Assembly: GCA_963841735.1 (NCBI GenBank)
Contig: CAWJDT010000001.1
Location: forward strand, 384,001-448,000
Source: an uncultured Actinomycetes bacterium
GTDB lineage: Bacteria; Actinomycetota; Thermoleophilia; RBG-16-64-13
Direction: 5' to 3'
Length of the DNA stretch: 64,000 bases
The position numbers and the translations under genes are program-made. The number at the start of each line of letters is the position of its first letter. Position 1 is the stretch's first letter. The notes below the pieces were generated by a model. That model worked only from the letters and a program-made list of their open reading frames with translations, was not told where the DNA came from and searched no databases. Positions 2,891 to 53,815 of the stretch are shown piece after piece.

Positions 2891-2954
2891 CGAGATCTGG
2901 TGCTGTTTGGACGGGATCATGCGGACCACTGGGGTTTGAGTCTCAGGCCGGGAG
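2891..2954 (+). repeat. Dispersed ~70 bp L-motif, copy 1
   Basis: GAGATCTGGTGCTGTTTGGACG-N21-TGAGTCT, matches nine other copies. Confidence 0.75.
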
Positions 2955-6200: not shown

Positions 6201-6270
6201 CTTTTCAGAATCTGGAATTTTTTGGACGGAGTCTTGTGGCCAACTGGGTGTGAGTCTCGGTCGGGGCCCG
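6201..6270 (+). repeat. L-motif copy 2
   Basis: TTTTCAGAATCTGG...TTTGGACGG...GTGAGTCT, abutting the last attC of integron 1. Confidence 0.65.
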
Positions 6271-19960: not shown

Positions 19961-19975
19961 CCCGGAGGAAAGGAA

Positions 19976-33741: not shown

Positions 33742-33880
33742 GGCGATAACCACCACCCCATCCTTGTCCACTCGGGCCACCTGCCCGATGCCCGCCACAA
33801 TATCCTAATCGCGGCGCCGCGCACAGCGTTTATCGCGACCGTGAACATCGTGGCCGCGAACGGAGGGAGGCTGCGAATCT

Positions 33881-33955
33881 CTCTTCAAATTCTGGCGCTG
33901 TTTGGACGAAACACTACGGGCACGCAGGCGGTGAGTCTTGGCGCGGGGAGCCAGC
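33881..33955 (+). repeat. L-motif copy 3 (left edge of hotspot)
   Basis: CTTCAAATTCTGGCGCTGTTTGGACG...GTGAGTCT. Confidence 0.8.
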
Positions 33956-34043
33956 TAGACCTCCCGGCCAGGCATGCCGGGACGCCAGCCTAGAACCTAA
34001 GATGCACTGAGGTGCGGAACCGAAGTCGTACGGTTTCCTGATC

Positions 34044-34145
34044 ATGAAAGTACGTGACGTGATCAGACTGCTTCTCGACGACTGATGGTTCATGGTCGCC
34101 CAATCCGGAGGCCACCGAACAAGCCGGAATCGAGGTGGAGCGGCG
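34044..34145 (+). pseudogene. hicA: HicA toxin remnant
   Basis: MKVRDVIRLL..*WF.V.QSG.HR, homologous to 51851; stop and deletion. Confidence 0.75.
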
Positions 34146-34376
34146 ATGAGAACCTTCGTGCTCGTCATAGAAGATGCGGGCAAGAATTACTCCGCTTACG
34201 CTCCGGAAGTGCCGGGTTACGTGGCCACAGGCTCATCGGAGAAAGAGGCCGAGGCGAACATGCGCACCGCGCTCGAGCTACACCTCAAGGGCATGCAGGG
34301 AGATGGCCTCCGGGTCGAGTCTCGTGACGTATTCGTGCGGCGAATACGGGTCGGTTCCGCCCGGCGAGCTTCGTAG
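34146..34376 (+). CDS. hicB: HicB-family antitoxin
   Basis: IEDAGKNYSAYAPEVPGYVATG. Confidence 0.85.
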   Translation: MRTFVLVIEDAGKNYSAYAPEVPGYVATGSSEKEAEANMRTALELHLKGMQGDGLRVESRDVFVRRIRVGSARRAS

Positions 34377-34853
34377 TCGGTCCGCTGTGTCAGCGACCCG
34401 ACTTGTTCCAGGGGGCCGCAGCGACAAGCCCAGCGTGCCAGGATAGCGGCTCCCTAGAGGACGCCCGCCCCGTACAAGGCGATGAAGACCACCGCGACCG
34501 CCAACAGCGCTAGGCCCCCCTTGAAGCCCGGCGTGCTGTCGCGCAGCCCCAGCCACCGCCACTTCCATATGGCCTCGCGCTGCCTCTTGCGCAGCTGCTC
34601 CCGCCGCTCACTCACCTGACGACTCCTTGCCGAAGGGCACTAGCCTACTCGTCGGCGCGTGGTGCCCGCGGCTTTAGCGAGGCGGCGCCGGCCGCCGACG
34701 TTCCGCGAGCTTCTGGTCGTCGACGGATCGTCGTTGGCGCTGCTCCGTGTGATCCCGAACCTGCCCTCGACGAGTTCAGCGGGGCCCTCGAGGGAGACGA
34801 TGCTCATTTGCACCGCCGTGTCGATGGACAACTTGGGCATGGGCAGTGGGCGC

Positions 34854-35216
34854 TCACGCTGGGGCGAGCAGGTCGGCCAGCAGTTCACGCGCCTCGTCAG
34901 CGTCGCCGGCGGCGACCTGCAGCTTGGCGGGACCGGTGATGAGGTTGAAACCGGTCCCGAAGCAACCGGCGCCGAAGAGATCCTGGATGCCCTCGCCTTG
35001 CACCATGAAGGGTATCTCGGCGGACTGGAGGAGCGACTTGGCGATGGCCATCAGGCCGGGGTCGCCGGTGGCCAGAACGGTCACGAGCGGAGCAGGCAGC
35101 CCGGACCGGCGCCCCAACTTAGGCTCAGGCGGCAGCTGTTCGACCAGGGGCACCATACAGTCGGAACAGCGCGTGCAACCGGGGACGTACTCAGCACGGC
35201 ACTTGGGACAGTACAT
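34854..35216 (-). CDS. Zinc-ribbon + DUF2007-like protein
   Basis: MYCPKCRAEY...CSDC; IAKSLLQSAEIP; LQVAAGDADEARELL. Confidence 0.8.
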   Translation of the reverse strand: MYCPKCRAEYVPGCTRCSDCMVPLVEQLPPEPKLGRRSGLPAPLVTVLATGDPGLMAIAKSLLQSAEIPFMVQGEGIQDLFGAGCFGTGFNLITGPAKLQVAAGDADEARELLADLLAPA

Positions 35217-35242
35217 TTTAAACGCCTCGCTCAGCGCCGCGG

Positions 35243-36052
35243 CTATTCACCGGCGGTGCCTATGCGTTTGTTGGAGCTTCTTCGCGCCTCCGCGTCGTCA
35301 CGCGTTACGGTTACCCCCTCGTAGGCGATGAAATCGTCAAAGTCGACCTTGACCCTGAAGCGATCTTTGAGATACCTGCGTTCCTTGGGAACGATCGCGA
35401 CGAGCACTTCGTGTGTCTCCAGGTCGCCTTTTTGGAACGAACCGAACCAAACACGTGGTCTGCAAATCATGTTGACACTGTCGAGGCGCCTTTCAAACTG
35501 AAAGTGCCACTCGTTGTCCTTCTCTCCGATGTTTCTTTGAAAGACTGCGAGCTTGTTCCCACGAGAGACACTATCGCTAGAAACATGAACTGTGAGCGGA
35601 CAACCGAACAATGACCAGTACACCGGTTCTGGTGTCTCAATGACAATGCGAGCATTCTGCACTGGTTCAACATCAAAAGAGGCGAGCAACTCCCTAAGAC
35701 CCGTGTGGTAGTCGCTTCTGAAGTCGGCGTACCTTTTGCCGCGAAGAAAGGCGGGGATATCGCAGTCTTCCGCCAGAAGCGGCAGCACCATGGTGCTGCC
35801 GGACTCTATCTCGTCGTGGAACTTCGTACACCATTCACGCTGAACCCAGTTGGACCGTATGGCTTTCTTTGTCAGCCAAACCGCCACGAAATCGCAATGC
35901 TCGATCCCGTCCTGAAGCTTCTGAACGATGACATCTCCAAGACGGATCTCGTACTCATCAAGCCAAACGTCGATGCCATGGGCGCGCAGATCTGCGGCAA
36001 GGCGTCTGACGGAGTTCTTGTCCACACTCGAATGACTTAGGAAGATCTTCAT
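35243..36052 (-). CDS. TIR-domain protein
   Basis: IFLSHSS.DK, VWLDE.EI..GD, S.WVQRE, IP.FL..K.YADF; lower GC. Confidence 0.88.
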   Translation of the reverse strand: MKIFLSHSSVDKNSVRRLAADLRAHGIDVWLDEYEIRLGDVIVQKLQDGIEHCDFVAVWLTKKAIRSNWVQREWCTKFHDEIESGSTMVLPLLAEDCDIPAFLRGKRYADFRSDYHTGLRELLASFDVEPVQNARIVIETPEPVYWSLFGCPLTVHVSSDSVSRGNKLAVFQRNIGEKDNEWHFQFERRLDSVNMICRPRVWFGSFQKGDLETHEVLVAIVPKERRYLKDRFRVKVDFDDFIAYEGVTVTRDDAEARRSSNKRIGTAGE

Positions 36053-36370
36053 CTCTTGTGTCTAGTCACCGGAGCGAACTCATCGGGATGCTGCCGGGAG
36101 CACTCTTCGAAAGTGCCGATGAGGGCCGGCACGCCGTCGCCCGGAGTGTAGGGCTGCCTGCCCATGAGACGATCGAAGAAACCCATATCTCCCCCTTGCC
36201 GTATTCCGACTATCCGACCTGGTGATCGGCCTCACCAACCGGTGGTGGCGTCTCTTTGTAGCACGAATCGCGGACTACTCGCCGGCCCGCACTTCTTGCG
36301 ACGAGACTCTCGAACAGGCTGGGTGAGGCCGCCTTCACCCGTGCGGTCGACGTAGGGGGAGGTCACGTGT

Positions 36371-36440
36371 CTCTTTTCAAGATCTGGTGCTGTCTGGACT
36401 GGGTGGTGCGGGGGCCGGCGTCGGAGTCTCGGCGCGGGGG
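36371..36440 (+). repeat. L-motif copy 4
   Basis: CTTTTCAAGATCTGGTGCTGTCTGGAC...GGAGTCT. Confidence 0.8.
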
Positions 36441-36599
36441 CTGACTACGCCTGAAGGGTGGCCGCGAAGGCAGCTGGGGTCGCTACTTCGCACCAGGGTC
36501 GGACCGCCTCAGCGAGTCACCTGTCACCGCTGATCAGCACGCAGCGCCGCGTCAAAGGTCAGCCTCGGCCGCCGGCACAATGCGGCGCTGCGGAACCCA

Positions 36600-38030
36600 T
36601 CATCGGCCGCCGGCAGGAACTTCTGCGGTGGGATTGTAGGCCCACGTGTCGTTGATACAGGTCCAATACTGGCCGTTGTCGTAGTCTCCTCCGAACATGA
36701 TCACCCGTCCGGAGGATGCGGCGTAGATCATCGCTTGGCCCTTGCGACGGGGCGGCAGTGCCCCTGGCGGGTCGAGGTCGGTCCAGGCGTTGGCGGCCGG
36801 GTCGTAGGCCCAGGTGTCGTTGAGCATGCCGGCGAGAACGTCGTCGCGATCTCCCCATCCCCCAAAAACGATCACCCGCTTGGTGGAGGAGTCGTAGACC
36901 ATCGAATGGCTGCGGCGCCCGGCCGACGGTGCCTCCAGCGGCTCGAGGTCGGTCCAAGCGTTGGCGGTCGGGTCGTAGGCCCAGGTGTCGTTGAGAAGGG
37001 CGCCGGTACCGGCCTCTCCTCCGTACATGATCACTCGACCGGAGCGGGGGTCGTAGACCATCGCCTGCTGCCAACGGGCAGAGGGAACGGCGCCAACGGG
37101 GTCGAGGTCGGTCCATTTGTTGGCGGTCGGATCGTACGCCCAGGTGTCGTTGAGGCAGCCGCTTTCGTCGGAGCCTCCGAACATGATCACCTGGCCCGTG
37201 GAAGGGTCGTAGACCATCGACTGGCACCAGCGCGCGGAGGGAACTGCGCCAACAGGGTCGAGGTCGGTCCATTTGTTGGCTGTGGGGTCGTACGCCCAGA
37301 TGTCGTTGAGAAGTTCGCCGGTACCATCGAGGAGGGTGCCGGTAGTGTCCTCTCCTGCAAATACGATCACCCAGCCGGCGGAAGGGTCGTAGACCATCGA
37401 TTGGCACCTGCGCGCAGCCGGGGCGGCACCGGCGGGATCGAGGTCGGTCCAGGTGTTGGTGGCTGGGTCGTAGGCCCAGGTATCGTTGAGGTAGTCGGAT
37501 CCGCCGGACCCTCCGAACATGATCGCGCGGCCGGTGGAAGAGTCGTAGACCATCGAATGAGAGGCGCGCGCGAGCGGCAGCTCCACCGATGGGTCCTCGG
37601 ACGGGTTCAGCACCCGCGAGTTGAGTTTGGTCCACGTGTTTGCGACCGCCGGTGGGATGGTAGTGGTAGTCGCGCCGGTCGTAGTGGTCTTCGCAAGGCC
37701 GGTCGAACCGTCTCCCCGCAAGAAGCCGAAGTACACACCAAGTACAGCGCCGACCAGTATCAGCGCAGCTAGAGGAACAATCCAGAAGAGGTGGCGGCGA
37801 CCAGGATGGGCAACGTGTGCGGAGACCGCCGCCGGAAGAAGCCCGGAAATCTGGGCGGCAGGAAGCCAATCGGGAAGCGCCGGGTTCCACACCAAGTCGC
37901 TGGGCGTCAGCGTTCCGGCCTGTGCCACCAAGGAGAGTTGCTCCCACGTGACCGGACCGGTCTGGTGCCGAGAGGAAGTGTCCCCCTTGAGGTAGTACCA
38001 ATCTGAGGCCGTCAAGTCCGCGTTCGTCAC
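36600..38030 (-). CDS. Membrane-anchored Kelch-repeat protein with N-terminal GYF_2 (DUF4339) domain
   Basis: WYY...GP......L....LVW...L.DW; TM helix; six MVYD..VIMFGG..LNDTWAYDP repeats. Confidence 0.85.
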   Translation of the reverse strand: MTNADLTASDWYYLKGDTSSRHQTGPVTWEQLSLVAQAGTLTPSDLVWNPALPDWLPAAQISGLLPAAVSAHVAHPGRRHLFWIVPLAALILVGAVLGVYFGFLRGDGSTGLAKTTTTGATTTTIPPAVANTWTKLNSRVLNPSEDPSVELPLARASHSMVYDSSTGRAIMFGGSGGSDYLNDTWAYDPATNTWTDLDPAGAAPAARRCQSMVYDPSAGWVIVFAGEDTTGTLLDGTGELLNDIWAYDPTANKWTDLDPVGAVPSARWCQSMVYDPSTGQVIMFGGSDESGCLNDTWAYDPTANKWTDLDPVGAVPSARWQQAMVYDPRSGRVIMYGGEAGTGALLNDTWAYDPTANAWTDLEPLEAPSAGRRSHSMVYDSSTKRVIVFGGWGDRDDVLAGMLNDTWAYDPAANAWTDLDPPGALPPRRKGQAMIYAASSGRVIMFGGDYDNGQYWTCINDTWAYNPTAEVPAGGR

Positions 38031-38135
38031 AGGTCCCCCCTGATGCTGGGCCCGACACTCCACCCAGTATATCCGGGTCTAGTCGACCCTGCCGGTTCGA
38101 CCAGCCAAGCTGGCGATCGACGGGCTGGAGCGGCG

Positions 38136-38210
38136 ATGAGACCCTTTGCGATTCCCATAGAAGACGCGGGCAAGAACTACTCCGCCTACGCTCCAGAAGT
38201 GCCGGGTTGC
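38136..38210 (+). pseudogene. HicB N-terminal fragment
   Basis: IEDAGKNYSAYAPEVPG, near-identical DNA to 34146. Confidence 0.7.
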
Positions 38211-38281
38211 GGGAGGCGCGGGGTGCGAGTCTTGGCTCAGGGTCGGCCGGGCCTCATGCCCCGCTGCTATACCCCCTATGC

Positions 38282-38698
38282 TCAGGCGCGGCCAGCACGG
38301 ACCTTGGCGGTCTCTTCAAGGGCGAGAGCCATGGCCTCATCCTCGCTGAGCCCCGAGTCGACCCCGGCTCGTGCCAAGATCTCCTGCGCGCTGCCGATGA
38401 CACGCCCTATGTCGGCGCTGGTCGCCCCCAGGGCAAGCAGGGACCGCACCATCAGGTCCAACGATACCGACAGATCCGCGGCTTCCATCTTCGCCACCCG
38501 CGATTGGCTGGACCCCAGATGCTCCGCGAGCGCCGTCTGGGTCCAGCCCCGGGCTTGTCGAAGCTCCCGAAGCCGCTTGGCCAGGCCCAACCTGATCTCG
38601 ATGAAGGCGGCCTCTTCCGGTGTTAGACCGAGAAAGTCGGCGGCGTCACCGACCCACCAACCGGCGGCTTCGAGTTCCCTCCTTCTGCTCTCTTGCAT
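38282..38698 (-). CDS. XRE-family HTH antitoxin (C-terminus apparently chimeric)
   Basis: LEAAGWWVGDAADFLGL...TQTALA..LGSSQSRVAKME; toxin remnant upstream (38700-38790). Confidence 0.75.
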   Translation of the reverse strand: MQESRRRELEAAGWWVGDAADFLGLTPEEAAFIEIRLGLAKRLRELRQARGWTQTALAEHLGSSQSRVAKMEAADLSVSLDLMVRSLLALGATSADIGRVIGSAQEILARAGVDSGLSEDEAMALALEETAKVRAGRA

Positions 38699-38842
38699 CA
38701 GCTTCTCCCTATCGAGCCCAGCAGACGATCGTAGCTGCCGAGCCGCCTCTTGCAGGCCTCGATGACCGACGTGGGCGTGGCCCTAGTAGTCCTGCAACCA
38801 CACGAGTGGCTTGTCTGGGCGCGATTCAGACATAACCAGTCT

Positions 38843-38858
38843 ATGTCAGATATGACAT
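38843..38858. promoter_or_regulatory. Palindromic TA operator candidate
   Basis: ATGTCA-GATA-TGACAT. Confidence 0.55.
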
Positions 38859-39004
38859 GGGAGCAACCTCGTAGCAGGGGAGCTGTGCGAGCCGTGCCGC
38901 GGCAGATTGTGCCGAAGAAGTCGGGAAAGAGGTCTAGGCCTTCAGGCTGAGTCTGGCGAGGCCACCTTCACCTGCTGCCGTCCACATGGGGGGTGGTCAT
39001 GTGA

Positions 39005-39110
39005 CTCTTTTCAAGATCTTGTGCTGTTGGGACGGTGTTGTGCGGGCCCACGGGATGTGAGCCTGAGCCCGGGATCCAGCCACCTTTCGACCGGCGGCGC
39101 TACTGCGCCC
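39005..39110 (+). repeat. L-motif copy 5
   Basis: CTTTTCAAGATCTTGTGCTGTTGGGACGG; extension CCAGCCACCTTTCGACCGGCG shared with copy 10. Confidence 0.85.
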
Positions 39111-39180
39111 CATCACCCCGTGGCTGGCCATACTCCAACCAAAGACGGAGCCGGCGACAATGGGAGTCCAGTACTTTTAC

Positions 39181-39262
39181 TTCCCAGATAGCCTTGGACT
39201 AGATTCCCAAATAGCCGGAGTGGCTTTTCCCAATTAGCCGGGGTACAATTTCCCAGTCAGCC
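39181..39262 (+). repeat. Four TTCCCANNNAGCC direct repeats with 23-bp period
   Basis: Starts at 39181, 39204, 39227, 39250. Confidence 0.85.
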
Positions 39263-39272
39263 GACCAAGGGA

Positions 39273-40535
39273 GTGCCGACAACCATGACAGCGCCCTCCA
39301 GCCCGATCCAACGACTACTCGCGCCACGGTTGAGCGCCGCGCTCGCCGACACGCCCGTCGTCCTCATCCATGGTGCTCGTCAGAGCGGCAAGACAACGCT
39401 CGCGCGGATGGTCGGCGAGCCCCTGGGATACGCCTATTTGTCGTTTGACGACGATGCTGTTCTTCAGGCGGCATCGCGCGACCCAATCGGCTTCGTCGGA
39501 GAACTGCCTCCGCGTGTCATCTTGGACGAGGTCCAGCGCGTCCCTGCGCTGTTCACTTCACTCAAGGCTGAGGTGGACCGGCGGCGTCTACCGGGGCGTT
39601 TCATTCTCACGGGGTCGGCAAACGTCCTGCTTGTGCCTGCGCTCGCGGATTCTCTCGCGGGTCGGATGGGCATGCTGAGGCTACATCCCTTCGCGCAGAG
39701 TGAACTGACCGGCCAGGGGCAAGGGTTCTTGAATGATCTCTTCGCGGGCCGGTTTGCCACCCGTGTCGTGGAGCGGCTGGGCGAGGAGTTGGCTCAGCGG
39801 ATCGTGGCCGGCGGATACCCGCCTGCGCTTGAGCGACGCACGGCCGCACGACGTGGCGCTTGGTACCGAGACTACGTGGACACACAAATACAGAGGGACG
39901 TGCGTGATCTATCCCGCATCCGGTCGCTGGAGATACTCCCGCGTCTTCTGGCTGTGGCCTCCGCCAACACCGCCCGCCTGTTGAACGTCAGTGAGCTGGC
40001 CGGGCCCTTCTACGTCGACCGGCAGACGATCCACGATCACATGGTGCTGCTCGAGGGCGTGTTCCTTCTTCAGCGTCTTCAACCCTGGTTCACAAACCGG
40101 CTATCGCGGCTGGTCAAGACACCGAAGCTGCACATGGGCGACACTGGAGTCGCGTGCGCTCTCCTGGGCGTGCAGGCGCCCGACCTGCAGCAGGATAGGG
40201 CTCTTCTTGGATTCCTTCTTGAGACCTTTGTGCTGCAAGAACTCCAGCGCCAGGCGAGTGGACAAGGGGAACACCACGCGTTCTTCCACTTCCGCGATCG
40301 TTACGACCACGAGGTGGACATCGTCATTGAGCGCGGCGCGTCCGCGGTGGCGGGCGTGGAAGTGAAGGCGGCGGCGACCGTCACCGACAGTGACTTCCGC
40401 GGGCTTCGACGACTCAGTGAGGCCGCGGGTGACCGTTTCTCTCACGGAATCGTCCTGTACGACGGCACAGCTATTGTGCGGTTTGGCGAGAAGCTCCATG
40501 CGGTGCCCATTCGCACCCTTTGGGAGACCTACTGA
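39273..40535 (+). CDS. AAA_14 ATPase with DUF4143 domain
   Basis: GARQSGKT, LDEVQ, LTGSA, GGYP, K.PKL...DTG, EVDIV, EVK. Confidence 0.92.
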   Translation: MPTTMTAPSSPIQRLLAPRLSAALADTPVVLIHGARQSGKTTLARMVGEPLGYAYLSFDDDAVLQAASRDPIGFVGELPPRVILDEVQRVPALFTSLKAEVDRRRLPGRFILTGSANVLLVPALADSLAGRMGMLRLHPFAQSELTGQGQGFLNDLFAGRFATRVVERLGEELAQRIVAGGYPPALERRTAARRGAWYRDYVDTQIQRDVRDLSRIRSLEILPRLLAVASANTARLLNVSELAGPFYVDRQTIHDHMVLLEGVFLLQRLQPWFTNRLSRLVKTPKLHMGDTGVACALLGVQAPDLQQDRALLGFLLETFVLQELQRQASGQGEHHAFFHFRDRYDHEVDIVIERGASAVAGVEVKAAATVTDSDFRGLRRLSEAAGDRFSHGIVLYDGTAIVRFGEKLHAVPIRTLWETY

Positions 40536-40647
40536 CTGCGAGCAGCGTGATAGGGCGGAGTCTGCCCCGGTGACGGTTACCAGGGACTCCTCACTCGACG
40601 GCGTCCAGCTGACTCGCCCTACTCAGAGAAGTAGTCGGCGTCGATCG

Positions 40648-40717
40648 CTTCAAGATTTGGTGCTGATCGGCCGGGGTCGTGCGGCAGACGGGGGGCGTGA
40701 CTCTCAGACCGGGAGCA
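40648..40717 (+). repeat. L-motif copy 6
   Basis: TTCAAGATTTGGTGCTG...GTGACTCT. Confidence 0.7.
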
Positions 40718-40719
40718 AG

Positions 40720-41550
40720 CTACACGTGGCATCTGGCCTTGTAGGCCCAGCAAATCTGCTCCAGCATGGTACGAACACCTGGTCTGCTCCCGTCGCGAGC
40801 GCAGCAGCGCACACAGGCATCCGCCAGGGTCAGGGAGCCGTCCTGTCCCGTGGAGCCACCGAGCACCGGCAGCCACGAACCCTCGCCCTGCGGCACGTTC
40901 ACCTCGGCCACCGAGCCATCGCGCCGCGTCACCCGAGTCTTGCCCGCGGGAGCATTGCGCACGCACGTGATGGTGGGATAGGTCACCAGCTCCCCGAAGG
41001 TATCCTCGGGCACCAGGTGGATAGCTCACATGGGGCCGGGCCGCCGCAGCGGACCGGCGCTGTCCACGTAGAGATACTTCTCGGGCGTGATGAACACCAG
41101 CCGGCCCCCGGGAGCCAGACCGGCGAGCGCCTGCTCGAAGAAGAGCATGTACAGGTCGAACCGGCCGCGTGCCGTCGCGAAACCGGCCCGGTAGTGCTGC
41201 TTCTCGGCCTGCGACAACCCCGTGATGGCCACGTAAGGGGGATTGCCGCCGATGAAGTCGTACTCCCCGGGCTCGCTCAGCAGATAGTCGGCGTGGCGTA
41301 TCTCGACAGCAGGGTGCCCATCGAACTTGCAGCGCAGTACGGTCACATGGCGAGGGTCGGACTCCACCCCGGTGACTCGAGGCACAGGGAGGTCGCGCGT
41401 CGCGCACCAGCGGATGATCCCCTCGATGAAGGCTCCGGCGCCGCATCCAGGATCGAGCACGCGGTCATGCGAACCGGGCGGCCGCTCGCGGAACAGCAGC
41501 TCGACCATGCCGTCGACGGTCTCGGTCGGTGTCGGAACGAATCCCTTCAT
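40720..41550 (-). pseudogene. Eco57I/TaqI-like N6-adenine DNA methyltransferase (fragmented)
   Basis: VLDPGCGAGAF, GNPPY, DLYMLFFE, LVFITPEKY; broken afterwards. Confidence 0.85.
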
Positions 41551-41640
41551 AGTGAGTCCATCGTACACGACGGAGTGGACGGGGCTGCGAGCGACTGCCC
41601 TCTCACGGACCACGGCCGTGGACGTAGGGAGGCCGTCAGG

Positions 41641-41710
41641 CTCTGGTCAATATCTGGCGTTGTTTGGACGGGGTGACGCGGGAGACGTGGGGTGAGTCTG
41701 AGCGCGGGCG
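41641..41710 (+). repeat. L-motif copy 7
   Basis: GGTCAATATCTGGCGTTGTTTGGACGG...GTGAGTCT. Confidence 0.75.
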
Positions 41711-42056
41711 ATCAGATACGGGACCAGCAACAGCGACGACCCAGTGGTGGTGGTGATCATCATCATCATCCTGCCGACGACTTGTTGATGATGATGATGT
41801 TCTTGGTGGTGGTTGTGGTGGTGGCGACGACGGCGTTGCGCGTCATCATGACGATGGCGATGACATCCTCGCGGTTATCCTTGATGCATGAGCTTTGGCC
41901 AACCCCGCAATGATTGCGGGGTTTGTTGCGGGATAGCCCGGAGGCGGCCAATTCCTCTCCCGTATCACGCAATGATTGCGGGTCCCTTTGCGCGAAATGG
42001 ACGAAACCAAGTGGACATGACCCGACAACCCTGGTTCCGACTCAGGGCGAAACACC

Positions 42057-43550: not shown

Positions 43551-43596
43551 TGGTTCAACCTCTCCCCCCATGTGCCGGCACAGCGAGTTCGTACTT

Positions 43597-43746
43597 CGCG
43601 CACCAGCGGATGATCCCCTCGATGAAGGCTCCGGCGCCGCACACCGGATCGAGCACGCGGTCATGTGGACCGGGCGGCCGTTCGCGGAACAGCAGCTGGA
43701 CCATGGCGTCGACGGTCTCGGGCGGTGTCGGAACGAATCCCTTCAT
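43597..43746 (-). pseudogene. Second 5' fragment of the DNA methyltransferase
   Basis: MKGFVPTPPETVDAMVQLLF...VLDPVCGAGAFIEGIIRWCA. Confidence 0.8.
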
Positions 43747-43893
43747 GGTGAGTCCATCGTACACGACGGAGTGGACAGTCCGGCGGATGTGGCCTTGGTC
43801 TGCGCGCCGACGGAGCACAGAGCTCGAACAACTCAGTCTCCGCTGGACCTGGGGCGGTTCACTTGGCCGGTCCGTGGAACCGGTGAGCCGGGG

Positions 43894-45156
43894 CTAGTAG
43901 GAGTAGCCCCAGACACGGCGTATGGGTGAGATGAATCCTGGAAGGCCAGTCTCCTCCTCGACTGTCTCGCCCAATAGTGTGAGACCAAGAAACCGTCTGA
44001 CCGGCGTGAACAGGTACAGCAGACGCCCGTCAGCTGAGGCAGCCCACACAACGAGCCCTTCCCCCGCGCTGGACTTCTTGGCGAGAGGCAGAGGCTGTCC
44101 CATACGATCCCAGCGGTCAAGTTGTTGGGTCCACGCCTCCGACATGAAGACCAGCCCGTCGACACCCTCGGCAGCCACTTCCTTCGCTACTTCATGCCAG
44201 AAGAAGTACTTGTCCGTCTGATTTCCGAAGTATGTCGAAATCATCTGCCAGCTCTTCTCAGGATGGTGCAACCACAAGAGGGTGGTGTGGTATCCATCAG
44301 TCCTCATCAAGTGTCGAGCTTGGGGAAGGAGCGCACGAGCGAACTCAAGGGGGTCATCTGGGTTGTCAGTGTGGCTCATGCGCGACGTTCCGTACCGCTT
44401 GACTACCTTCTGCTTGAAATCAGGGTCCTCTAGGCAATTCGGCGCGTCCCTAGTCACGAGTCCTTTCTCTTCAAAGGTCGTTGGGTCAACAACAATCTGG
44501 TAGTCATCCTCGGTCAGAGCAGGGCAACTATTGGGGATTGCCTTGACGATCTCGCCTGGTGGAGGAGTCGCCTTCCCTGCCACTCGGGCTTCGAAGTCAA
44601 GCACCAGCAGAACCATTATGTGGAGAAGCTCGCGCAGGGCGGCAAGAATCTCCTGGTCTGGGAGCGTGTCGACTTCCCAATGGCGCTCAACAATCAGCGT
44701 GGAGCCCTCCAACTGCTCGGCGGGGGTTGACTCTGCAACGACCGAGACGGCCTGTTGCGTTGTCAAGCACGGGGGCAGACTAAGGCTCGTCTTGAATGGG
44801 CACAAGTAGGAGTTGACGAGTGTGACGGTCGCGCGGCTGCTTGGAGCCAGACCTTCCTTCTTCACAACTCGGTTGCGCGCCTCGATGGCCCACTTGGCAG
44901 TGGAGTTGGCGCGAAGCAGCGACTGCCATGGTTCATACCACTGTTCGAAGTCAGACAGTTCCTTCTTGTTGGCTTGTACTCTGAAGGTGATGTTGCGTAG
45001 GTCCTGTATTAGGGTGTTGAGTGAGAATATGAACTCGCGGGGGTCGTGGTAGTTCCGACGGCATTCATCGAAGTAGTAGGTGGCCTTGTCCAGGACTTCC
45101 CTTACGCTGGAGACAGCCTCGGGCCTTTGGCTGCCCACGCTTCGCTTCTTGCTCAC
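43894..45156 (-). CDS. Hypothetical protein, possible HEPN-like N-terminus
   Basis: ~420-codon ORF with lower GC; helical N-terminus with ARNRVVK. Confidence 0.7.
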   Translation of the reverse strand: MSKKRSVGSQRPEAVSSVREVLDKATYYFDECRRNYHDPREFIFSLNTLIQDLRNITFRVQANKKELSDFEQWYEPWQSLLRANSTAKWAIEARNRVVKKEGLAPSSRATVTLVNSYLCPFKTSLSLPPCLTTQQAVSVVAESTPAEQLEGSTLIVERHWEVDTLPDQEILAALRELLHIMVLLVLDFEARVAGKATPPPGEIVKAIPNSCPALTEDDYQIVVDPTTFEEKGLVTRDAPNCLEDPDFKQKVVKRYGTSRMSHTDNPDDPLEFARALLPQARHLMRTDGYHTTLLWLHHPEKSWQMISTYFGNQTDKYFFWHEVAKEVAAEGVDGLVFMSEAWTQQLDRWDRMGQPLPLAKKSSAGEGLVVWAASADGRLLYLFTPVRRFLGLTLLGETVEEETGLPGFISPIRRVWGYSY

Positions 45157-45387
45157 GAGCAACTCACCAGACTGCTCCCCCGCTTGCCAGCATGACTCAC
45201 TGAGACAACGAGACCCATCGTGCTGCAAAGAAACTACGCTCCGGCGCAAGGGTGGTCAAGTGGAATGCACTGCGAGCCAAACTGCGGTCTCTTGACACGG
45301 TGCGCGGCGTGGTCTGAATTCGACATCACCGCGGCAAGTGGCGCACCTCACCGCCCGGGCACCCGACTGAGACCAGAGGCAGCTCAG

Positions 45388-46315
45388 CTACAACTCGTCC
45401 GGCAACCCCTTCAACTCCGCCATGGAGAACACCGGCCCGTCCACGCACACATACTTGGGCCCGACGTTGCAGCGGCCGCAGATGCCTATGCCGCACTTCA
45501 TCCTCTTCTCGAGGGTGGTATAGGTCTGCTCGGGCGTGAAGCCTAGCTTCTCGAAGCTGATCAGGGCGAACTTGATCATGATGGGCGGACCGCAGGTGAT
45601 GGCTATGGTGTTGGCCGGGTCGGGGTTCATGCGCTCCAAGACCGTCGGCACCATGCCCACGTCGCACTGCCAGCCGTCGCACTCGCGGTCGATGGTGAGC
45701 ACCAGCTCGATGTCCTTGCGCTTCTGCCACTCCTCCACGTCATACCAGTAGGTGAAGTTGGTGGGGTGCGTCGCGCCGTACAGGATGGAGATGCCGGCGT
45801 AGTCGGCGCGGTGTTCCAGGGTGTATTCGATGGTGGCCTGTGACTCGTTTCGAAACGAAGCCGCGGCCGCCTAGTTCACGCCGGACGGCACAATACCACG
45901 TCCTCAGTCGCGCCAATAGCTCCGCTATTGACGCTCCTTGCGTCCTTGTCTTGCGCTTGCCCGGCGTGTCCCTGACGGCCGAGCGTCACTTCGAAACGAG
46001 TCTTGGAGCGCTGCCGAACCGATGCCGCCCAGGACGTAGAGGATCCTCTTGCCCTTCCAGGCCTCCACCGGGAAGCCGCAGCCCATGGGGGCGCGGATGC
46101 CCACCTTGTCGCCCTCGGACAGGTTGTGTAGAGCCTTGGTGACCTCGCCGGCCTTCATCACTGAGAACTGGATGAACTCCTTCTCGCTGGGCTTGGAGCT
46201 GATGGCGAAGGTCGACTCGCCTATTCCGAAGATACCCAGCTGGCCCACCTGGCCGGGGGCGAAGGTGAACTTCTCCTGCACGGCGGGATCGTCGAAGCGC
46301 ATGCGGAAGGTCTTG
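45388..46315 (-). pseudogene. Duplicated 3' part of flxA-like gene, interrupted by a MITE
   Basis: Near-identical to 58046-58808 with mostly synonymous changes. Confidence 0.92.
45841..46003. mobile_element. MITE (~160 bp)
   Basis: GACTCGTTTCGAA...TTCGAAACGAGTC terminal IRs; absent from the intact paralog. Confidence 0.85.
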
Positions 46316-46352
46316 CGCGAACCATATACAGGGTTGGAGAGACACCGCGAGT

Positions 46353-46425
46353 CTCTTTTCAAGATCTGGTGCTGTTTCGACGAGTAGTGCGGGCAGCGGG
46401 GCGGTGAGTCTTCGCGCGGGGGGTA
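46353..46425 (+). repeat. L-motif copy 8
   Basis: CTTTTCAAGATCTGGTGCTGTTTCGACG...GTGAGTCT. Confidence 0.85.
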
Positions 46426-46479
46426 GCCGCACAGGCCTTGGCTTACAATAGCGTCCCTTGAACACCCGCTGTGTGCAGG

Positions 46480-46760
46480 CCATCGGACCGATCTAGGACA
46501 AACCGTGCCTTCTCAACCCTCAGCATCTCAAAGGGGGTCATGGGCTTGATGCCCATGCCAATGCACACGTTCGGGATCTTGATCTTCTTCACGCTCTGAG
46601 CCGGCACTTCGTGCGTCACCACTGTGTGCCCGTGCGCGAGTGCCTGCGCGACGAGGTAGAAGTCGGCGGCCTGCAAGAACGTCGTGACGGCGGCTGGGTC
46701 GTAACCCTGTTGGCTGGCCCACGAACTGCCTCGTACTCTCCGTCCACGTCGATGCCCGGG
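46480..46760 (-). pseudogene. DUF4411 (PIN-like) C-terminal fragment
   Basis: FLQAADFYLVAQA...VVTHE...KKIKIPNVC...PFEMLR. Confidence 0.75.
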
Positions 46761-46814
46761 GTGTTGTCCCGCGCGACGCGGGGCGGGTTCACGTTGTCGA
46801 TGTACATTCGAGGT

Positions 46815-46913
46815 CGAGCACCCGGTCATCCGGTCCGGGCGGCCGTTCGCAAAACAGCAGCGCGACCATGGCGTCGACGGTCTCGGGGCGGTGTGGGGAA
46901 CGAATCCCTTCAT
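46815..46913 (-). pseudogene. Third 5' fragment of the DNA methyltransferase
   Basis: MKGFVP / PETVDAMVALLF.ERPPGPDDRVLD. Confidence 0.75.
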
Positions 46914-47072
46914 AGTGAGTCCATCGTGCACGACGGAGTGGACGGTTCGAGGGCTGTGGCCTTAGTCTGCGCGCCGATAGGGCACAGAACTCAAACAACT
47001 CAGTCTCCATTAACCCTGCGGTTCACTGCTGGACGCGGGCGAACTTGATCACGATGGGCGGGCCCCCGCCGG

Positions 47073-49395
47073 TCAGGGTTCGCGGGCATGAAGCAGGCCA
47101 AGGGCAACAGTCACCACGACCGCGACGAGCACAAAGGCAAATGGCGTATAGCCGAACCCCGCGATCTCGGGGAGTCCGGTGTCGTGGGCGAACGCCAGCC
47201 CGGCGATCGAAGCAACCGTGATCGCCCCGGTGACCGGGAGGAATGCAGCCGTGCCCGTGACCACCCGCCGGGCGGGTGTCCGGCCGGACCTAACCATGAG
47301 CAGCCGAAACTCCCGTTCTTCAGAAACAAGCTGGAATCCCAGAGCGACGGCCATCAGGGCCACGAGCAGTGCCGCTCCGTAGCCGAGCATCTGCGAAAAC
47401 GCATAGAAGCCGCCATCCTGGTAGCCGGCGTCGATATCGATGAACGCCGCCGGCGCAATGGACCTGGCGAGGCCTTCCAGCTGACCCTGATCGGCCGCGG
47501 ACAAACTGGTGAAGTCGAGCAGCGCGATATCTCTCAGCTCATTGGGCTGACCTCCATAGCGGGCGAGGCTGTCAACCACAGCGTCCGGAAACCCCCCGCC
47601 ACCGCCCAGTAGTGAGGTCGGCACGGCGGCGACCGTGGCCAACGGGGTGAGCTCTCCCTCGCGCAGCCGGGCTATCACAACTTGCCCGTTCTCGATGAAG
47701 GACGGGTCTGCAAGGACGGAGTGCTCCTCCGGACGAGCATCGATCGTCCAGACTTCGGCCGGCTCGCCGATGGAGCCCCAGGTCGAGCCGTTCTCAATAG
47801 TAAGCTCGGCATCAAGGCCGGCGAGGATACGCTCCTCGTCAAGCGGCGGCAACATCGCTTCAACGGCCCGAGCGATGGACGGTCTGACAACGAGAAGACC
47901 CGTAGAGTCAAAGCGGGTTGACATCTCGTTGCCGGAGTTGGCATCAGCCAGCTGCCGCAGGACCTCGAGAGTGGTAACTTCTCGCACGGCCAGCGAACCC
48001 GCGGGCTGGAACGGACGATACCAGGCCTCCTCGATCTTGCTCCCGTGGGCGTACTCCGTCGCGGCGATGCTAGCCGCGAGAGCGATGACAGTCAGTATGA
48101 GAATAGCGGGCAGCGCCCGCTTTGAGCGCTGCCTATGGACGTATGCCAACGCGCGCAGTCTGGACCGTCGTGTCGCGGCCGCAAGCGCGACCGGGATGGC
48201 GAGTGATATCGCGGCTGAGCCGGTGAGCGCGAGCCACCAGTTGATGTCGGCGTACTCACGCGAACGCGGAAAGGCCACCATAGCCACGCCGGCGCAGCAC
48301 AGTACCAGCGCGATCCAGCCAGTTGCGCGCGGCAGTGGCCGTCTTCGTAGCGCTCGCTCGACAGCGGGTCGTCGCGCCGGAAGCACCGGAAGCAGGAGCG
48401 CGACGCACACGAGAACGAGGACGAAGATAGCTGTGGCCGGCCGTAGATCGAAGGGAACATCAAGCCAGCGCATACCCCACGGCCGCCCCGAGAGCCGCGG
48501 CGCCAGAAGAAACGTGAGCGCAACAACTATCCACCCTGCAAACGCGCCACACGCCGCCGAAAGCGCGCACGCCACAGAAACCACAGCTCCGGCCTGGCGC
48601 TCTCGCATTCCCGCTGCCACCAGCCCGCGATGCTCCACTGAGACCCCGGAATTGAACAGCATGACCAGAAAGGCGAACAGGCATGCCGCGATCACCAAGA
48701 ACGCCGGCCTGAAGTACGCGGACGAAACCCAACGGGCCTTGGTCGATCACCTCTGCCGCGAGCATCGTCTCAAAATCGGCCGAGTTGGCCGTGTAGCCTG
48801 AATCGCCCAGATACTCCGGTATGTCATTGACAAGCCACGCCGTAGGTTCATCCACGGTGGGGCCGGCAAGGCCGGCGATGGCAGCCCACTGGGGGCGCGT
48901 GGGCAGCACAAATATGCCCACTACTTCGAACACCTCGGCACCGATCTGTACCTGGTCCCCCACCGATACCGCCAGTCTGGCCGCGGCGGTTTCCGAGAGC
49001 GAGACCTCGCTTGCCGAGGAGGAGTGACTACCCGACACGAGCAGGCCAAACTCGGCGACGCGGGAATCGGCCGAGAAGGCGTCCAAGCCCACCCGGGAGC
49101 GGCCGACATCAGCGGAGCGGCCGCCTGCGTTGACTCGAACCTCGTCGGTCTGCACAGCGACGGCGCCTGTCACAGTGGGGACGGCTTGATCAGGGACTAT
49201 CTGAAGTCGGAACCCGCGATAGGTGGACTCTACCGACGCCCGCGTCTGTTGCAGCGTAGTCGAGTACGACATGTCCGCCACGGCAAACGCGGCAGCTAGG
49301 CACGTGGCAACGATCGCCACACCGAGGCAACGGAGCCGCTGCCAACCCATCAACCCCCAGGCCAGGCGGCAGACACGAGGCCAAATGCGGGTCAT
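47073..49395 (-). CDS. FtsX/MacB-like ABC permease (frameshift ~48700)
   Basis: N-terminal TM, periplasmic-like domain (LAVSVGDQV..VVGIF), two TM clusters; coupled to ATPase. Confidence 0.7.
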
Positions 49396-50036
49396 TGGAC
49401 CGCGCTCGTCACTCGACCATCACGGATGTGGACTACGCGATCTGCCAGACCAGATACCAGAGGATCATGCGTCGCCACCAAGACGCCCACCTGGTGCGTT
49501 CGGGCGATCTCGACGAGCAGTCTGCCGATCTGGACACTGTTGTCCGCGTCGAGCGATCCGGTCGGCTCATCGGCCAACAGGTAACGCGGGCGCGTCGCGA
49601 CCGCTCGGGCTATCGCCACTCGCTGCTGCTCTCCGCCCGACAGGTGCACCGGGAGTTCCTTCATCTTGTCTGACAGCCCCACCGCCTTGAGTGCGCGATC
49701 AGAGCGGTCGGCGATGTCCTGAGGGCCGATCCGCTCAAGCAGCTCTACCGCGAGCGACACGTTGGCGTGAGCGTTGATAAACGGTACAAGCCGGTAATCT
49801 TGGTATATCCGAGCCAGCCCCCGCGTGCGCTGCTTGCCCCCCACCCGTTCGCCGTCGATGGTCACTTCTCCGTCGAAGCCGGGAAGATCACCCGAGAGAA
49901 CTCCGAGGAGCGTCGACTTGCCCGATCCCGAGGGACCAACCAACGCAGTGACCTCGCCCTCGCGCACGCACAGCGAAATGCCCCGCAAAACAGGAGCTGT
50001 CCCATATGCGAACTGCACGTTCGACGCCTGAATCAC
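49392..50036 (-). CDS. ABC ATP-binding protein (LolD/MacB type)
   Basis: GPSGSGKST, LSGGEQQRVAIARA, ADEPTGSLD, ATHD. Confidence 0.93.
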   Translation of the reverse strand: MIQASNVQFAYGTAPVLRGISLCVREGEVTALVGPSGSGKSTLLGVLSGDLPGFDGEVTIDGERVGGKQRTRGLARIYQDYRLVPFINAHANVSLAVELLERIGPQDIADRSDRALKAVGLSDKMKELPVHLSGGEQQRVAIARAVATRPRYLLADEPTGSLDADNSVQIGRLLVEIARTHQVGVLVATHDPLVSGLADRVVHIRDGRVTSAVQ

Positions 50037-50131
50037 CAGAGACCCCCCTTGCTATTGGCGCAGATCCGGTACGGCCCACGATAGCAGCGGAGGTGCCGCG
50101 CCGTCGGCGGCGCGGCACCTCCACAGGTGGG

Positions 50132-50458
50132 CTACAAGCCTGAGAGTTGGAGTGAAGGCGTACCGTCAACGCTGCTTTCGCCTGACTGATACGTCACATT
50201 CAGGGCCGTGAACCACACGGTCGCTTTGTCAGGCCAATTGTTCACGGTGTAGTAGCCCCGGGCTTTCGTGTCGGCGTTCAGTGAGTACGCTTTGGCCTTC
50301 ACGCTGTACTTGTCCGGCGACCAGGAGACGACACGCTTGACCTCCCACGCCGTTCCGCTCCCCCCAATGCCCAGGGCGGGTACGGAGATGACCAAAGCAC
50401 AAACCCCAACCAACGCCACAGCCAACGCGATCCTCAGTTTCCCGCGGAGGTGTTTCAT
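50132..50458 (-). CDS. Small secreted protein
   Basis: Sec signal peptide (VPALG) followed by ~80 aa aromatic-rich mature part. Confidence 0.7.
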   Translation of the reverse strand: MKHLRGKLRIALAVALVGVCALVISVPALGIGGSGTAWEVKRVVSWSPDKYSVKAKAYSLNADTKARGYYTVNNWPDKATVWFTALNVTYQSGESSVDGTPSLQLSGL

Positions 50459-50881
50459 TCTTGCGACTCCAGTCTACTCGATGACTTCAGCTGCCTTTGG
50501 CGCCCTTTTGCGCAGTGGCGGAAACGCCAGAGTGGGCCGCCATTTGATGCGCGCCTTGTACCCACGGCAAGACCGATAGCTCGATAGGCCCCCCCTTTCA
50601 GATTGCCTGGCATATGTCGGAGCCCTACCGGCCGTCTCGCCGCGCCTTCCGGCGTGGCTTCCTCCGCCAGCGCCCTACCCTCATATATGTCCGGCAGGCG
50701 CAAAACTGTGCCTTCCGACAATCGTGACCCACACGAGAGAGCCGCGTTTTGCGTGGATTCGCCGCTGCAGTTGGCTGTGAGAGCCGCCAGGACGGACTGG
50801 CGTCCGACAACCAGCGAGACTGGCCGTCCGCCACTGCTCGGCATTCCCAAAGGGCAAGGGTGGCGCCTCTCGGCGCCAGGT

Positions 50882-50985
50882 CTACCCGGCCACGGCGCGA
50901 GCAAGGACCTCTGCGTTCAGCCGGTCCCGCAGGGCGTCCGGGGCCACATCGAGGTCGTAGTCAGCCTGGAGCCCAAGCCAGCAGC
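50882..50985 (-). pseudogene. HigA-like antitoxin C-terminal fragment
   Basis: WLGLQADYDLDVA.DAL.DRL..EV. Confidence 0.55.
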
Positions 50986-51031
50986 ATCTGACTCCGTAGG
51001 ACTTTAGTTGGACTCTGGCGCGGAAAGAGCG

Positions 51032-51097
51032 TGCAAGATCTTGTGCTGTTCTGGCGCGGTTTATTGGCCGGCCGGGACGCGAGCCTTAGCCCTCGCG
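51032..51097 (+). repeat. L-motif copy 9
   Basis: GCAAGATCTTGTGCTGTTCTGG...GCGAGCCT. Confidence 0.65.
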
Positions 51098-51129
51098 CAA
51101 CTCACACCATTGCCAAGCTGACGCCGTTC

Positions 51130-51640
51130 GTTCTGCTACTCCACCTTGAGCTCGACTCGTGGTCGATCATCAGTTCCGCGAGCTTCTGGCCGTCGATGAG
51201 GGCGATCTTGTTGTCGATCTTGCCGACGTAGTCGCGCGCTTCGGCCGAGAAGCACGAGGTGGTGATCATGATCCCCTTCTTGGAGCTGGTTTCAGAACGA
51301 AGCCTTCGCCACCCGGCGACATACGGCCGCCGAGTCCGCGCTCAGCGGAGGGATCCGTCGTCCTCGGTCGCGCCCGTAGCGCCGCTACGAACGCTCCCTG
51401 CGTCCTTGGCCCTCTCGCGCCGATCGCATCCTGATGGCGGGGCGTCATTCTGAAACGAGTTCTTGGCCCGGATGTAGATGATGTCCGGCCCCTGGCGATC
51501 CTTGTTGATGATGCCGTCGATATCTTCATCGCCGCTGCGCCCGATGGCCCGGCCCGCGTCCTGGCGGCTGCCTCCGTAGCCCATCTTGAGCAGCAACTCC
51601 ACGACGAGTCTCTCGAGCAGGCTGGGCGAGACCGCACTTG
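51130..51640 (-). pseudogene. mrr: Mrr restriction endonuclease fragment interrupted by a MITE
   Basis: ERLVVELLLKMGYGGSR.DAG.A.GRSGDE.IDGII; KGIMITTS.FS.EARDYV..I..KI.LIDG. Confidence 0.8.
51283..51462. mobile_element. MITE (~180 bp), same family as 45841-46003
   Basis: GAGCTGGTTTCAGAA...TTCTGAAACGAGTTC; shared AACGAAGCC and TGCGTCCTTG internal motifs. Confidence 0.75.
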
Positions 51641-51671
51641 CCTGTGCCGAGTACGTCGGGGGTGTCACGTG

Positions 51672-51780
51672 TCTCCGTTCAAGATCTGGTCCTGTTTGGA
51701 CGGTGTTGTGCGGGGACGCGTGTTGTGAGTCTGTGTCCAGGAGCCAGCCACCTTTCGACCGGCGACGCTGCCGCACCCTT
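51672..51780 (+). repeat. L-motif copy 10
   Basis: TTCAAGATCTGGTCCTGTTTGGACGGTGTTGTGCGGG...GTGAGTCT. Confidence 0.85.
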
Positions 51781-51850
51781 CGCTCCTAGGCTGGTCATAC
51801 TCCACCCTAAGGCGGAGCCGGCGACAGGATGCGACAAGTAGGGTATCTTC

Positions 51851-53761: not shown

Positions 53762-53815
53762 CGATGCCACACTTCACGCGTTTCTCGAAGGCGGTGTAGG
53801 TCTGCTCGGGGGTAA
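53762..53815 (-). pseudogene. Short third copy of flxA 3' segment
   Basis: TPEQTYTAFEKRVKCGI vs TPEQTYTTLEKRMKCGI. Confidence 0.75.

Follow-up and report, generated by a model that had tools for sequence, protein, structure and literature searches.

We analysed a 64,000-nucleotide (nt) stretch of DNA from an uncultured Actinomycetes bacterium, here called the window, in which a short repeat that we name E recurs among toxin-antitoxin (TA) and defence genes. The window is C1:384001-448000 of the main genome (G000), an assembly of 2.82 Mb in 8 contigs with 63% G+C and 89.7% completeness. It holds ten copies of E, which adjoin genes for TIR, Kelch/GYF, AAA-DUF4143, a methyltransferase (MTase) fragment, deaminase-ATPase, an ABC module, Mrr, HicAB, ROK, panD and an S-adenosylmethionine (SAM)-MTase (Table 1). 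An earlier note on this DNA had listed ten copies on one strand; repeat finding, MAFFT alignment and an nhmmer profile recovered every one of them on the + strand, within 5 nt of the position given there. Additionally, a search for box A of E (described below) with up to 3 mismatches found 6 sites in the window, all on the + strand, and none in 100 dinucleotide shuffles. We use E+ for the direction adopted in the earlier note, running from head to tail, and x for position along E.

Iterated nhmmer searches and a sequence-only covariance model built from 18 copies bring the G000 total to about 20 copies: the 10 in the window, 7 at C1:1523577-1563638, one at C1:303011, two in dnaE and one weak, diverged copy on C5. 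The second group, the copy at C1:303011 and the E-like stretches in dnaE came to light through the profile scan that the earlier note had proposed. Eighteen of the G000 copies are intergenic, and the two clusters are two defence/TA islands. Pfam annotation covered both G000 clusters, 11 loci of relatives and 2 metagenome contigs. Across the two clusters the cargo comprises HicAB, PIN, ParE, BrnT/A, HigB/A, AbiE, TIR, Mrr, MTases and HNH, together with deaminase-ATPase, OLD-TOPRIM, AAA-DUF4143 and SIR2-HerA, and the islands are bordered by core genes (ROK, GH3, panD, a pyrK-like operon, DUF362, aldo-keto reductase and dnaE). The TA/defence setting is the same in relatives and metagenome contigs: copies always cluster among such genes, and in G000 they are confined to a few variable islands.

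The covariance model was run over 41 genomes including G000, 15 of them sister genomes of the genus. The E family occurs in 15 of the 41, with G000 counted. It is carried by 11 of the 15 sister genomes (two of them through a single match each, one of which is weak); G023, from another genus, has 6 matches, and two further genomes have a single weak match each. The other 4 sister genomes gave no match, but their assemblies are highly fragmented (170-370 contigs), so these blanks say little. Five of seven metagenome loci contain E. A strict IUPAC pattern searched over 60 relatives had matched once outside G000; it proved too strict and was replaced by the covariance model. A degenerate pattern searched over 185,579 species genomes found 32 loci, mostly single chance matches in unrelated phyla, and its E-type matches lay in metagenome-assembled genomes labelled uncultured Actinomycetes. 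A scan of viral contigs yielded 0 matches, as did BLAST of E against phage and plasmid records, and the text portions covered by our literature search contained no paper on the E motif or on non-attC cassette arrays in Actinomycetota.

Architecture and polarity of E

E is about 65-85 bp long and consists of box A (CAAGATCTGGTGCTGTTKGGAC), a variable spacer, box B (GTGAGTCT) and a weaker tail box. Architecture and orientation were evaluated over 67 copies outside dnaE, drawn from G000, 11 relatives and 5 metagenome contigs. Identity averaged over columns is 0.81 in box A (model positions 4-26), 0.66 in the spacer (27-49), 0.82 in box B (50-57) and 0.50 in the first tail columns (58-65). The spacer from GGAC to GAGTCT measures 24 or 25 nt in 64 of the 67 copies, 23 nt in two and 26 nt in one; the earlier description of a repeat of about 70 bp with a 20-22-nt spacer was about right. 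A third, weaker box, read by eye as AGCCA, AGCTAC or GATAC, lies about 20 nt beyond GAGTCT, and the window copies have about 10-35 nt more in common ahead of box A, on the head side. By composition, the E+ strand has 42% G and 22% C; likeness between copies is modest, at about 60-90%.

We found no fold in E. The RNAalifold consensus of 18 copies contains 0 pairs on either strand, and as single-stranded DNA all ten window copies fold no better than their shuffles (z from -0.65 to +2.07); as a control, a genuine attC site of G000 (L056:10126-10216) gave z = -3.32, with none of 200 shuffles as good. Rfam at the gathering score returned 0 matches over the whole window. Given the lack of a fold on either strand, E would act as a duplex site. 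Boxes conserved at fixed distances are, moreover, the pattern that selection by a bound protein would leave, since passive copies would decay uniformly. Thus, the architecture of the 67 copies suggests that a protein recognises E as double-stranded DNA, through conserved boxes at fixed distances, and on this point it supports the earlier note, which had read conserved boxes around a variable spacer of fixed length as a protein-bound site.

The same results speak to several other classes. A structured RNA or riboswitch was rejected because neither Rfam at the gathering score nor RNAalifold on either strand found anything. A CRISPR array was rejected on copy spacing (646-20,027 nt, against regular spacers of 25-50 nt) and on the modest likeness of the copies. 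The earlier note's exclusion of attC, REP and CRISPR repeats therefore stands, with no fold that beats shuffles, an attC control that does fold and irregular spacing.

Gene context was taken from a crude codon-based caller of open reading frames (ORFs), and 60 of 72 copies could be judged. Of these, 54 are intergenic by its calls, 4 fall in dnaE and 2 were marked as lying within over-long ORF calls, which agrees with the proposal that copies sit at boundaries between unrelated cargo. The neighbouring gene on the head side turns its start towards E in 33 of 54 cases and its end in 21; on the tail side a start faces E in 21 of 53 cases and an end in 32. Written as head and tail, the pairing is start-end in 23 copies, end-start in 12, and start-start and end-end in 9 each (n = 54). 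Neighbouring copies up to 20 kb apart are co-oriented in 31 of 36 pairs (binomial p = 1.3e-5), and the co-orientation noted in the window is thereby extended to arrays generally. Relative to the genes, E+ runs antisense in the window cluster, and the second cluster and the G012 array have it in sense direction. With the origin placed near 680 kb by GC skew, the two clusters differ in the replication strand that bears E+ (lagging in one, leading in the other), which rules out a replication-polarity signal of the KOPS (FtsK-orienting polar sequence) or Chi type. Neighbours are thus co-oriented despite mixed polarity towards genes and replication, which indicates that local history determines the orientation, as would happen if new DNA integrated at a site already present. 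As polarity towards genes is not fixed, E is not a simple promoter or terminator.

A wider regulatory role deserves separate consideration. E could be regulatory DNA that travels with accessory genes, whether as an operator, as an activator-dependent promoter (reused or mobile) or as the site of a genus-specific regulator or silencer, and its junction position would then mark where gene units begin. Boxes conserved at fixed spacing are also what a DNA-binding regulator together with polymerase would select, and GAGTCT keeps an A at position 2 and a T at position 6, the minimal requirement of a -10 box; the 24-25 nt between boxes A and B, however, misfit a -35/-10 pair, whose hexamers stand 16-18 nt apart, and a sigma-70-type scan of 33500-52000 found 0 promoter-like sites where shuffles average 2.7. 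The sigma-54 and extracytoplasmic function (ECF) promoter readings of the two boxes were dropped by eye, as the spacings misfit their consensus sequences. Several of the 33 gene starts on the head side lie within 5-85 nt of E (ROK, panD, MTase, Mrr, DUF362), and a distance of 100-170 nt is common for the 21 on the tail side (hicAB, BrnT, OLD-TOPRIM, DUF6036), but ratios of 33:21 and 21:32 are near the even split that we assume for random intergenic sites, and 9 of 54 copies stand between two gene ends, where a promoter would be useless. The pairs E-Mrr and E-DUF362 recur in other genomes and in a metagenome contig, and promoter reuse upstream of unrelated genes has been reported (PMC3575422). 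Regulation nevertheless leaves unexplained why neighbours are co-oriented irrespective of gene direction and why flanks switch at the edges of E (see below). We therefore regard a regulatory E as unlikely.

Exchange of flanks at E and candidate enzymes

Flanks were compared all against all for 60 copies with 1.5 kb on each side. Most copies have only E in common, with sharp edges. On the head side, 11 long homologies extend through E, with their ends at x = 58-66 (7 cases), x = 81-92 (3) and x = 119 (1). On the tail side, the starting points of 10 long homologies all fall between x = -53 and +10. There is some redundancy among these pairs, 5 of the 11 head-side ones being DUF362 copies.

Individual loci show the flanks changing partners at E. 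In a three-way alignment, the G004 copy upstream of DUF362 tracks G000:1526700 from the gene through E, then, within the tail box (x of about 78-82), changes over to the G000:1523576 flank and stays with it for 1.5 kb. At the amidohydrolase-E-MBL locus, gene and E are common to G000 and G004, and right after GAGTCT there are 2.8 kb of other genes in G004 versus 105 nt in G000. The head side of c41646, consisting of the 5' part of the MTase and E, is orthologous in G000, G013 and G001 (where the copy has decayed), and three different sequences follow past the tail. At c51678, homology with G004 begins at the head edge of E. Additionally, spacer likeness is higher inside arrays (0.642, 74 pairs) than across arrays (0.534, 2137 pairs), a difference reached by none of 1000 label shuffles, and one copy in G009 is mosaic, with a head like that of c41646 and a spacer and box B like those of c33884.

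Co-orientation, independent flanks, breaks at the edges and likeness within arrays together indicate that the DNA on either side of E has had its own history, while E itself comes through intact in the products. This is just the outcome expected of reciprocal exchange between two sites. We therefore favour, tentatively, the reading that E is a protein-recognised recombination joint served in trans. With the same reserve, we propose that it may be the joint at which TA, restriction and other anti-phage segments are exchanged or added in the variable islands of the genus. The pairing of two E sites would fall to a recombinase whose gene lies elsewhere in the genome or has since been lost; it would exchange the DNA on one side, and each product would keep a whole E. 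New DNA would arrive with, or next to, an E of the same direction, by which co-oriented arrays would build up and neighbouring copies would become alike. Here we infer the action of a recombinase, the enzyme concerned and the place where strands would cross.

The recombinases of G000 include a single Xer-type tyrosine recombinase plus a second, split one, integron integrases, two tRNA-adjacent island integrases and one large serine recombinase; an Xer-type protein is encoded at C4:87966. Integron integrase genes (intI) lie at C1:809235-810572 and C6:31559-32533, with fragments elsewhere and a remnant in the window. A true integron, with its intI at L056:6235-7572, an insertion sequence (IS) of the IS110 family and attC sites of the form GTCTAAC...GTTAGC, is located away from the E arrays, and the nhmmer profile of E has no match in it. 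In the window, a decayed integrase remnant stands directly beside an IS110-family element, one of 5 copies in G000; this suggests a dead or translocated integron front end inside the island region. Both (18135-19960) fall within the region spanned by E copies, and no link to E was shown. IS91 and Y1 HUH transposases were not found in G000; PF04986 was unmatched in all 14 control genomes too, so its blank in G000 is weak.

The large serine recombinase (C5:265839-267593; 584 aa) belongs to a block resembling an integrative and conjugative element at L105:4724-11663 (G000:C5:260724-267663), together with a coupling protein, a relaxase, a methylase and a helix-turn-helix (HTH) protein. The recombinase gene is followed, 23 nt after its stop codon, by a diverged copy of E, and its end overlaps with a tRNA-like 3' fragment.

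Several points weigh against a recombination joint. No integrase, serine recombinase or transposase lies in any annotated array (two G000 clusters, 11 loci of relatives, 2 metagenome contigs), so the consistently linked enzyme that the earlier note had suggested seeking did not appear. Neither of two candidates tracks E: the integron integrase was found in 7 of 15 sister genomes and not in the E-bearing G002, G004, G008, G014 and G023, some of these being incomplete assemblies, and homologues of the large serine recombinase turned up in 2 of 15 sister genomes, with no E at any of the 7 homologous loci examined. Breaks occur at both edges of E, not at one crossover point, and copy spacing is irregular, with a median of about 2.5 kb. 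Several island breakpoints lie away from E, examples being the 5' duplicates of aldo-keto reductase, a break near c39010 with x of about 150 and the 5.7-kb segment separating hicB from pyrK, which is absent from G004. The AAA-DUF4143 module is common to G000 and G009 (88% identity), with E on both sides in both genomes, but homology stops about 90 nt short of the left E and at the module's own stop codon; E copies were thus not carried along with the module. No clean pair of filled and empty sites, target duplication (sought by eye only) or circular form was seen, and the comparison of filled with empty loci proposed earlier gave no clean crossover; at the amidohydrolase-MBL and panD loci, synteny with the more distant relatives breaks down exactly where the genes end. 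A large part of the island mosaic consists of partial host-gene duplications whose ends are not at E. Finally, the relatives are kin, and counts across them are not independent. For the idea that E marks the end of mobile modules, the outcome is accordingly mixed: flanks do assort independently at E between genomes, and its role as a module end is plausible but unproven, in view of the points above.

Sharp edges in many unrelated contexts would also be left by a small non-autonomous mobile element without terminal inverted repeats, landing in intergenic island DNA and once in frame in a dnaE linker; the junction pattern would then stem from the element's own sharp ends. The main support for such an insertion comes from dnaE itself. 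An E-like stretch of 60 nt lies in frame in the hypervariable DnaE linker of G000 (2 copies), G001, G012 and G014, and its peptide is absent at that place in G013, G005 and G018. Similarity between dnaE and intergenic copies is limited to E (x = 3-65), so the intergenic copies are not random dnaE remnants. Yet E has no terminal inverted repeats, none of ten copies forms an end-to-end hairpin, and head and tail look unrelated by eye. No target duplication was noticed by eye, and among the orthologous sites compared none differs by E alone. The copies in G000, only about 20, are clustered in few islands rather than dispersed, and the genome has no IS91 or Y1 HUH transposase. The end of a miniature inverted-repeat transposable element (MITE) or IS was rejected on similar grounds, with ends unpaired in the 10 folded copies and IS110 copies that end in other sequences. 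An insertion origin for E thus seems to us improbable.

Duplicated gene pieces and other repeats in the islands

Throughout the genus, cargo is often flanked by direct repeats of 0.3-1.6 kb, each a partial copy of a core gene, and one locus may hold up to 4 of them. Pieces of the pyrK-like gene reach 4 copies in G010, 3' pieces of dnaE number 4 in G000 and 3 in G014, and 5' and 3' pieces of DUF362 and 5' pieces of aldo-keto reductase occur as well. The DUF362 repeat ends exactly at the tail of E; the aldo-keto reductase repeat leaves E outside. These duplicates look like the product of repeated single-crossover integration of circles carrying a piece of the target gene, and such insertion may be the larger story of these islands. 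A second process would then operate beside any exchange at E: cargo flanked by duplicated host genes would be inserted, possibly by single-crossover homologous recombination of circles, which E alone does not explain. The picture of modules stacking in tandem consequently covers only part of what built this mosaic.

Some copies of E lie inside longer repeats, namely the 5' part of DUF362 with E (about 580 nt) and a 5' remnant of Mrr with E. E might therefore be functionless, upstream or intergenic DNA copied along with partial gene duplications, perhaps serving also as a C-rich, unstructured Rho-loading stretch on the complementary strand; the G-rich, unstructured E+ strand would indeed give a C-rich complementary RNA. 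But the pattern of boxes and spacer, with its fixed spacer length, is kept across 12 genomes and metagenome contigs, and most copies have nothing beyond a sharply bounded E in common. No gene runs in from the tail side at 21 of 53 copies, which leaves no terminator role there. We judge it very unlikely that E is a passive copy.

Other repeats were seen in the window. A MITE-like dispersed repeat of 140-165 nt is present at about 45840-46008, where it splits the duplicated pyrK-like piece, at 51298-51466 and at 57706-57826; it has more than 12 copies in G000 and dozens in the sister genome G005. A 200-nt 5' piece of an Eco57I-type MTase gene occurs three times (41381-41589, 43577-43785 and 46805-47021; 85-92% identity), and the deaminase-ATPase and DUF4411 frames take their starts from its second and third copies, so unrelated genes share a borrowed 5' end. 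A G+C-rich hairpin followed by a conserved 37-nt tail is found at 19975-20030 and 57937-57990, just past the stops of two unrelated minus-strand genes; the 37-nt tail opens like the head of E (GGGCAAATCCTG, minus strand). At 53774-56738, on the minus strand, lie adjacent SIR2-like and HerA/DUF87 genes, the latter apparently split into two frames; G004 is without the stretch between hicB and the pyrK-like gene that holds them.

Table 1. Copies of E in the window with their neighbours, and other features of the islands (positions without a prefix refer to the window).
Feature	Position	Strand	Context
E copy c2889	2891..2951	+	Between stop of DeoC-like gene (2955-3602, -) and start of panD (2424-2810, -); Pfam
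E copy c6204	6204..6265	+	Between end of ParE toxin gene (6384-6680, -) and start of SAM-MTase gene (5388-6149, -); Pfam
E copy c33884	33884..33947	+	Left edge of island; head: start of ROK regulator (32470-33798, -); tail: hicAB-like genes (+)
E copy c36376	36376..36437	+	Head: Mrr 5' end remnant of about 57 nt, then TIR (35243-36052, -); tail: end of Kelch/GYF gene (36600-38063, -), Pfam
E copy c39010	39010..39072	+	Head: Mrr 5' remnant and HTH gene (38282-38698, -); tail: hicA-upstream relic of about 90 nt, then AAA-DUF4143 module (39181-40536, +)
E copy c40649	40649..40712	+	105 nt beyond AAA-DUF4143 stop; between two gene ends
E copy c41646	41646..41707	+	32 nt upstream of Eco57I-type MTase fragment (41026-41613, -)
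E copy c46358	46358..46419	+	Abuts new start of duplicated pyrK-like 3' part (45388-46362, -)
E copy c51032	51032..51092	+	Upstream of ABC/MacB/DUF4411 block (46443-50904, -); most diverged window copy
E copy c51678	51678..51740	+	Mrr start about 12 nt from head (GTG near 51657, -); tail: hicAB-like genes (+)
Duplicate of pyrK-like 3' part	45388..46315	-	91-96% identical to 58046-58808
IS110-family element	18135-19901	-	One of 5 G000 copies; another in the true integron
Decayed integron-integrase 3' remnant	~19860-19960	-	Directly beside IS110 element
Partial-duplicate loci besides the window pair	L001:5422-9362; L049:3581-7686; G000:C1:1566268-1580570		
E-like stretches in dnaE	G000:C1:1574196-1574255 and 1579295-1579354; L045:4137-4192; L046:1971-2029		

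Known site classes and significance

E fits no described site class. The closest parallels are instructive in both directions, and we begin with integrons. Clusters of attC sites lacking an integrase (CALINs) are known (PMC4889954). Like integron arrays and CALINs, the E arrays split a chromosomal stretch into accessory units by co-oriented repeats, many of the units being TA pairs; repeats are more similar within an array, and arrays may have no adjacent recombinase and be served in trans. Unlike them, E has no hairpin fold and no R''/R' inverted pair, the units between its copies are of uneven length (0.65-20 kb) and frequently comprise several genes of either orientation, the integron integrase of G000 does not track E, and the attC sites of the true integron are unrelated to it. 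The core sites of attC are R'' (RYYYAAC) and R' (GTTRRRY) in inverted arrangement. Box A holds GTTTGGAC or GTTGGGAC, which matches that consensus at no more than 6 of 7 positions and has no inverted partner within 150 nt. An attC identity was ruled out by the fold test with its attC control and by comparison with the true integron of G000.

A second parallel is offered by the dif modules of Acinetobacter plasmids, in which short duplex sites bound TA or resistance modules and XerC/XerD are reported to be encoded elsewhere (PMC13141974, PMC12907356). E resembles these pdif modules in that short duplex sites bound accessory modules with no recombinase inside the module. It differs in being 65-85 bp long with several boxes, against 28 bp, and in lacking an ATAA-N6-TTAT core. 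Copies of E are mostly direct repeats, whereas pdif sites alternate in orientation. The chromosomal dif of G000 (L158:1490-1530; G000:C4, about 205585-205612) has the typical actinobacterial form with the core ATAATGTGCATTATG, and is one of only two genome matches to the pattern ATAA-N6-TTATG. A dif-like site was ruled out for E, which lacks that core and has only TCAAG in common with the XerD arm.

Tandem islands at tRNA genes or gene ends likewise have direct repeats that separate foreign blocks beside core genes, along with displaced fragments of the target gene, here dnaE, pyrK-like, DUF362 and aldo-keto reductase. They differ in that the E arrays have no integrase at their ends and in that the duplicated pieces of 0.3-1.6 kb mostly do not end at E. 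A tRNA-derived attachment site was rejected, as the window contains no tRNA gene and none of the 48 tRNA genes and 1 tmRNA gene predicted by ARAGORN in G000 coincides with an nhmmer match. Reused promoters and BOX, MIRU or REP repeats share with E the form of a short conserved intergenic sequence adjoining unrelated genes, and pneumococcal BOX elements have a modular box structure, as E does. E departs from them by having no fixed polarity towards genes and no fold, by not being tandem and by its confinement to islands. Over all these comparisons E matched no IS end, phage, plasmid, Rfam family or tRNA, and it does not appear to be the decayed IS end or remnant of a known gene that the earlier note had considered as a refutation.

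Defence and TA islands turn over fast, and how genes enter and leave them is mostly unknown when no integrase or transposase is nearby. In its broadest form, the proposal of a recombination joint would describe a means of gene shuffling particular to this genus. An unfolded duplex site of several boxes and a recombinase acting in trans, possibly of no known family, would add, swap and stack TA and anti-phage modules between core genes without a travelling mobile-element gene, alongside homology-driven insertion that leaves duplicates of dnaE, the pyrK-like gene, DUF362 and aldo-keto reductase. We consider this full scheme somewhat doubtful. E nevertheless offers a candidate joint that is defined by sequence, conserved in at least 12 related genomes and sited where islands differ between relatives. 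If the protein that binds E were found, it would open a route to a cassette system with a recombinase in trans in Actinomycetota, and possibly to a new duplex recombination site for tool building. Should E instead prove regulatory, it would clearly exemplify how a single control element can be imposed on many acquired genes that are otherwise unrelated.

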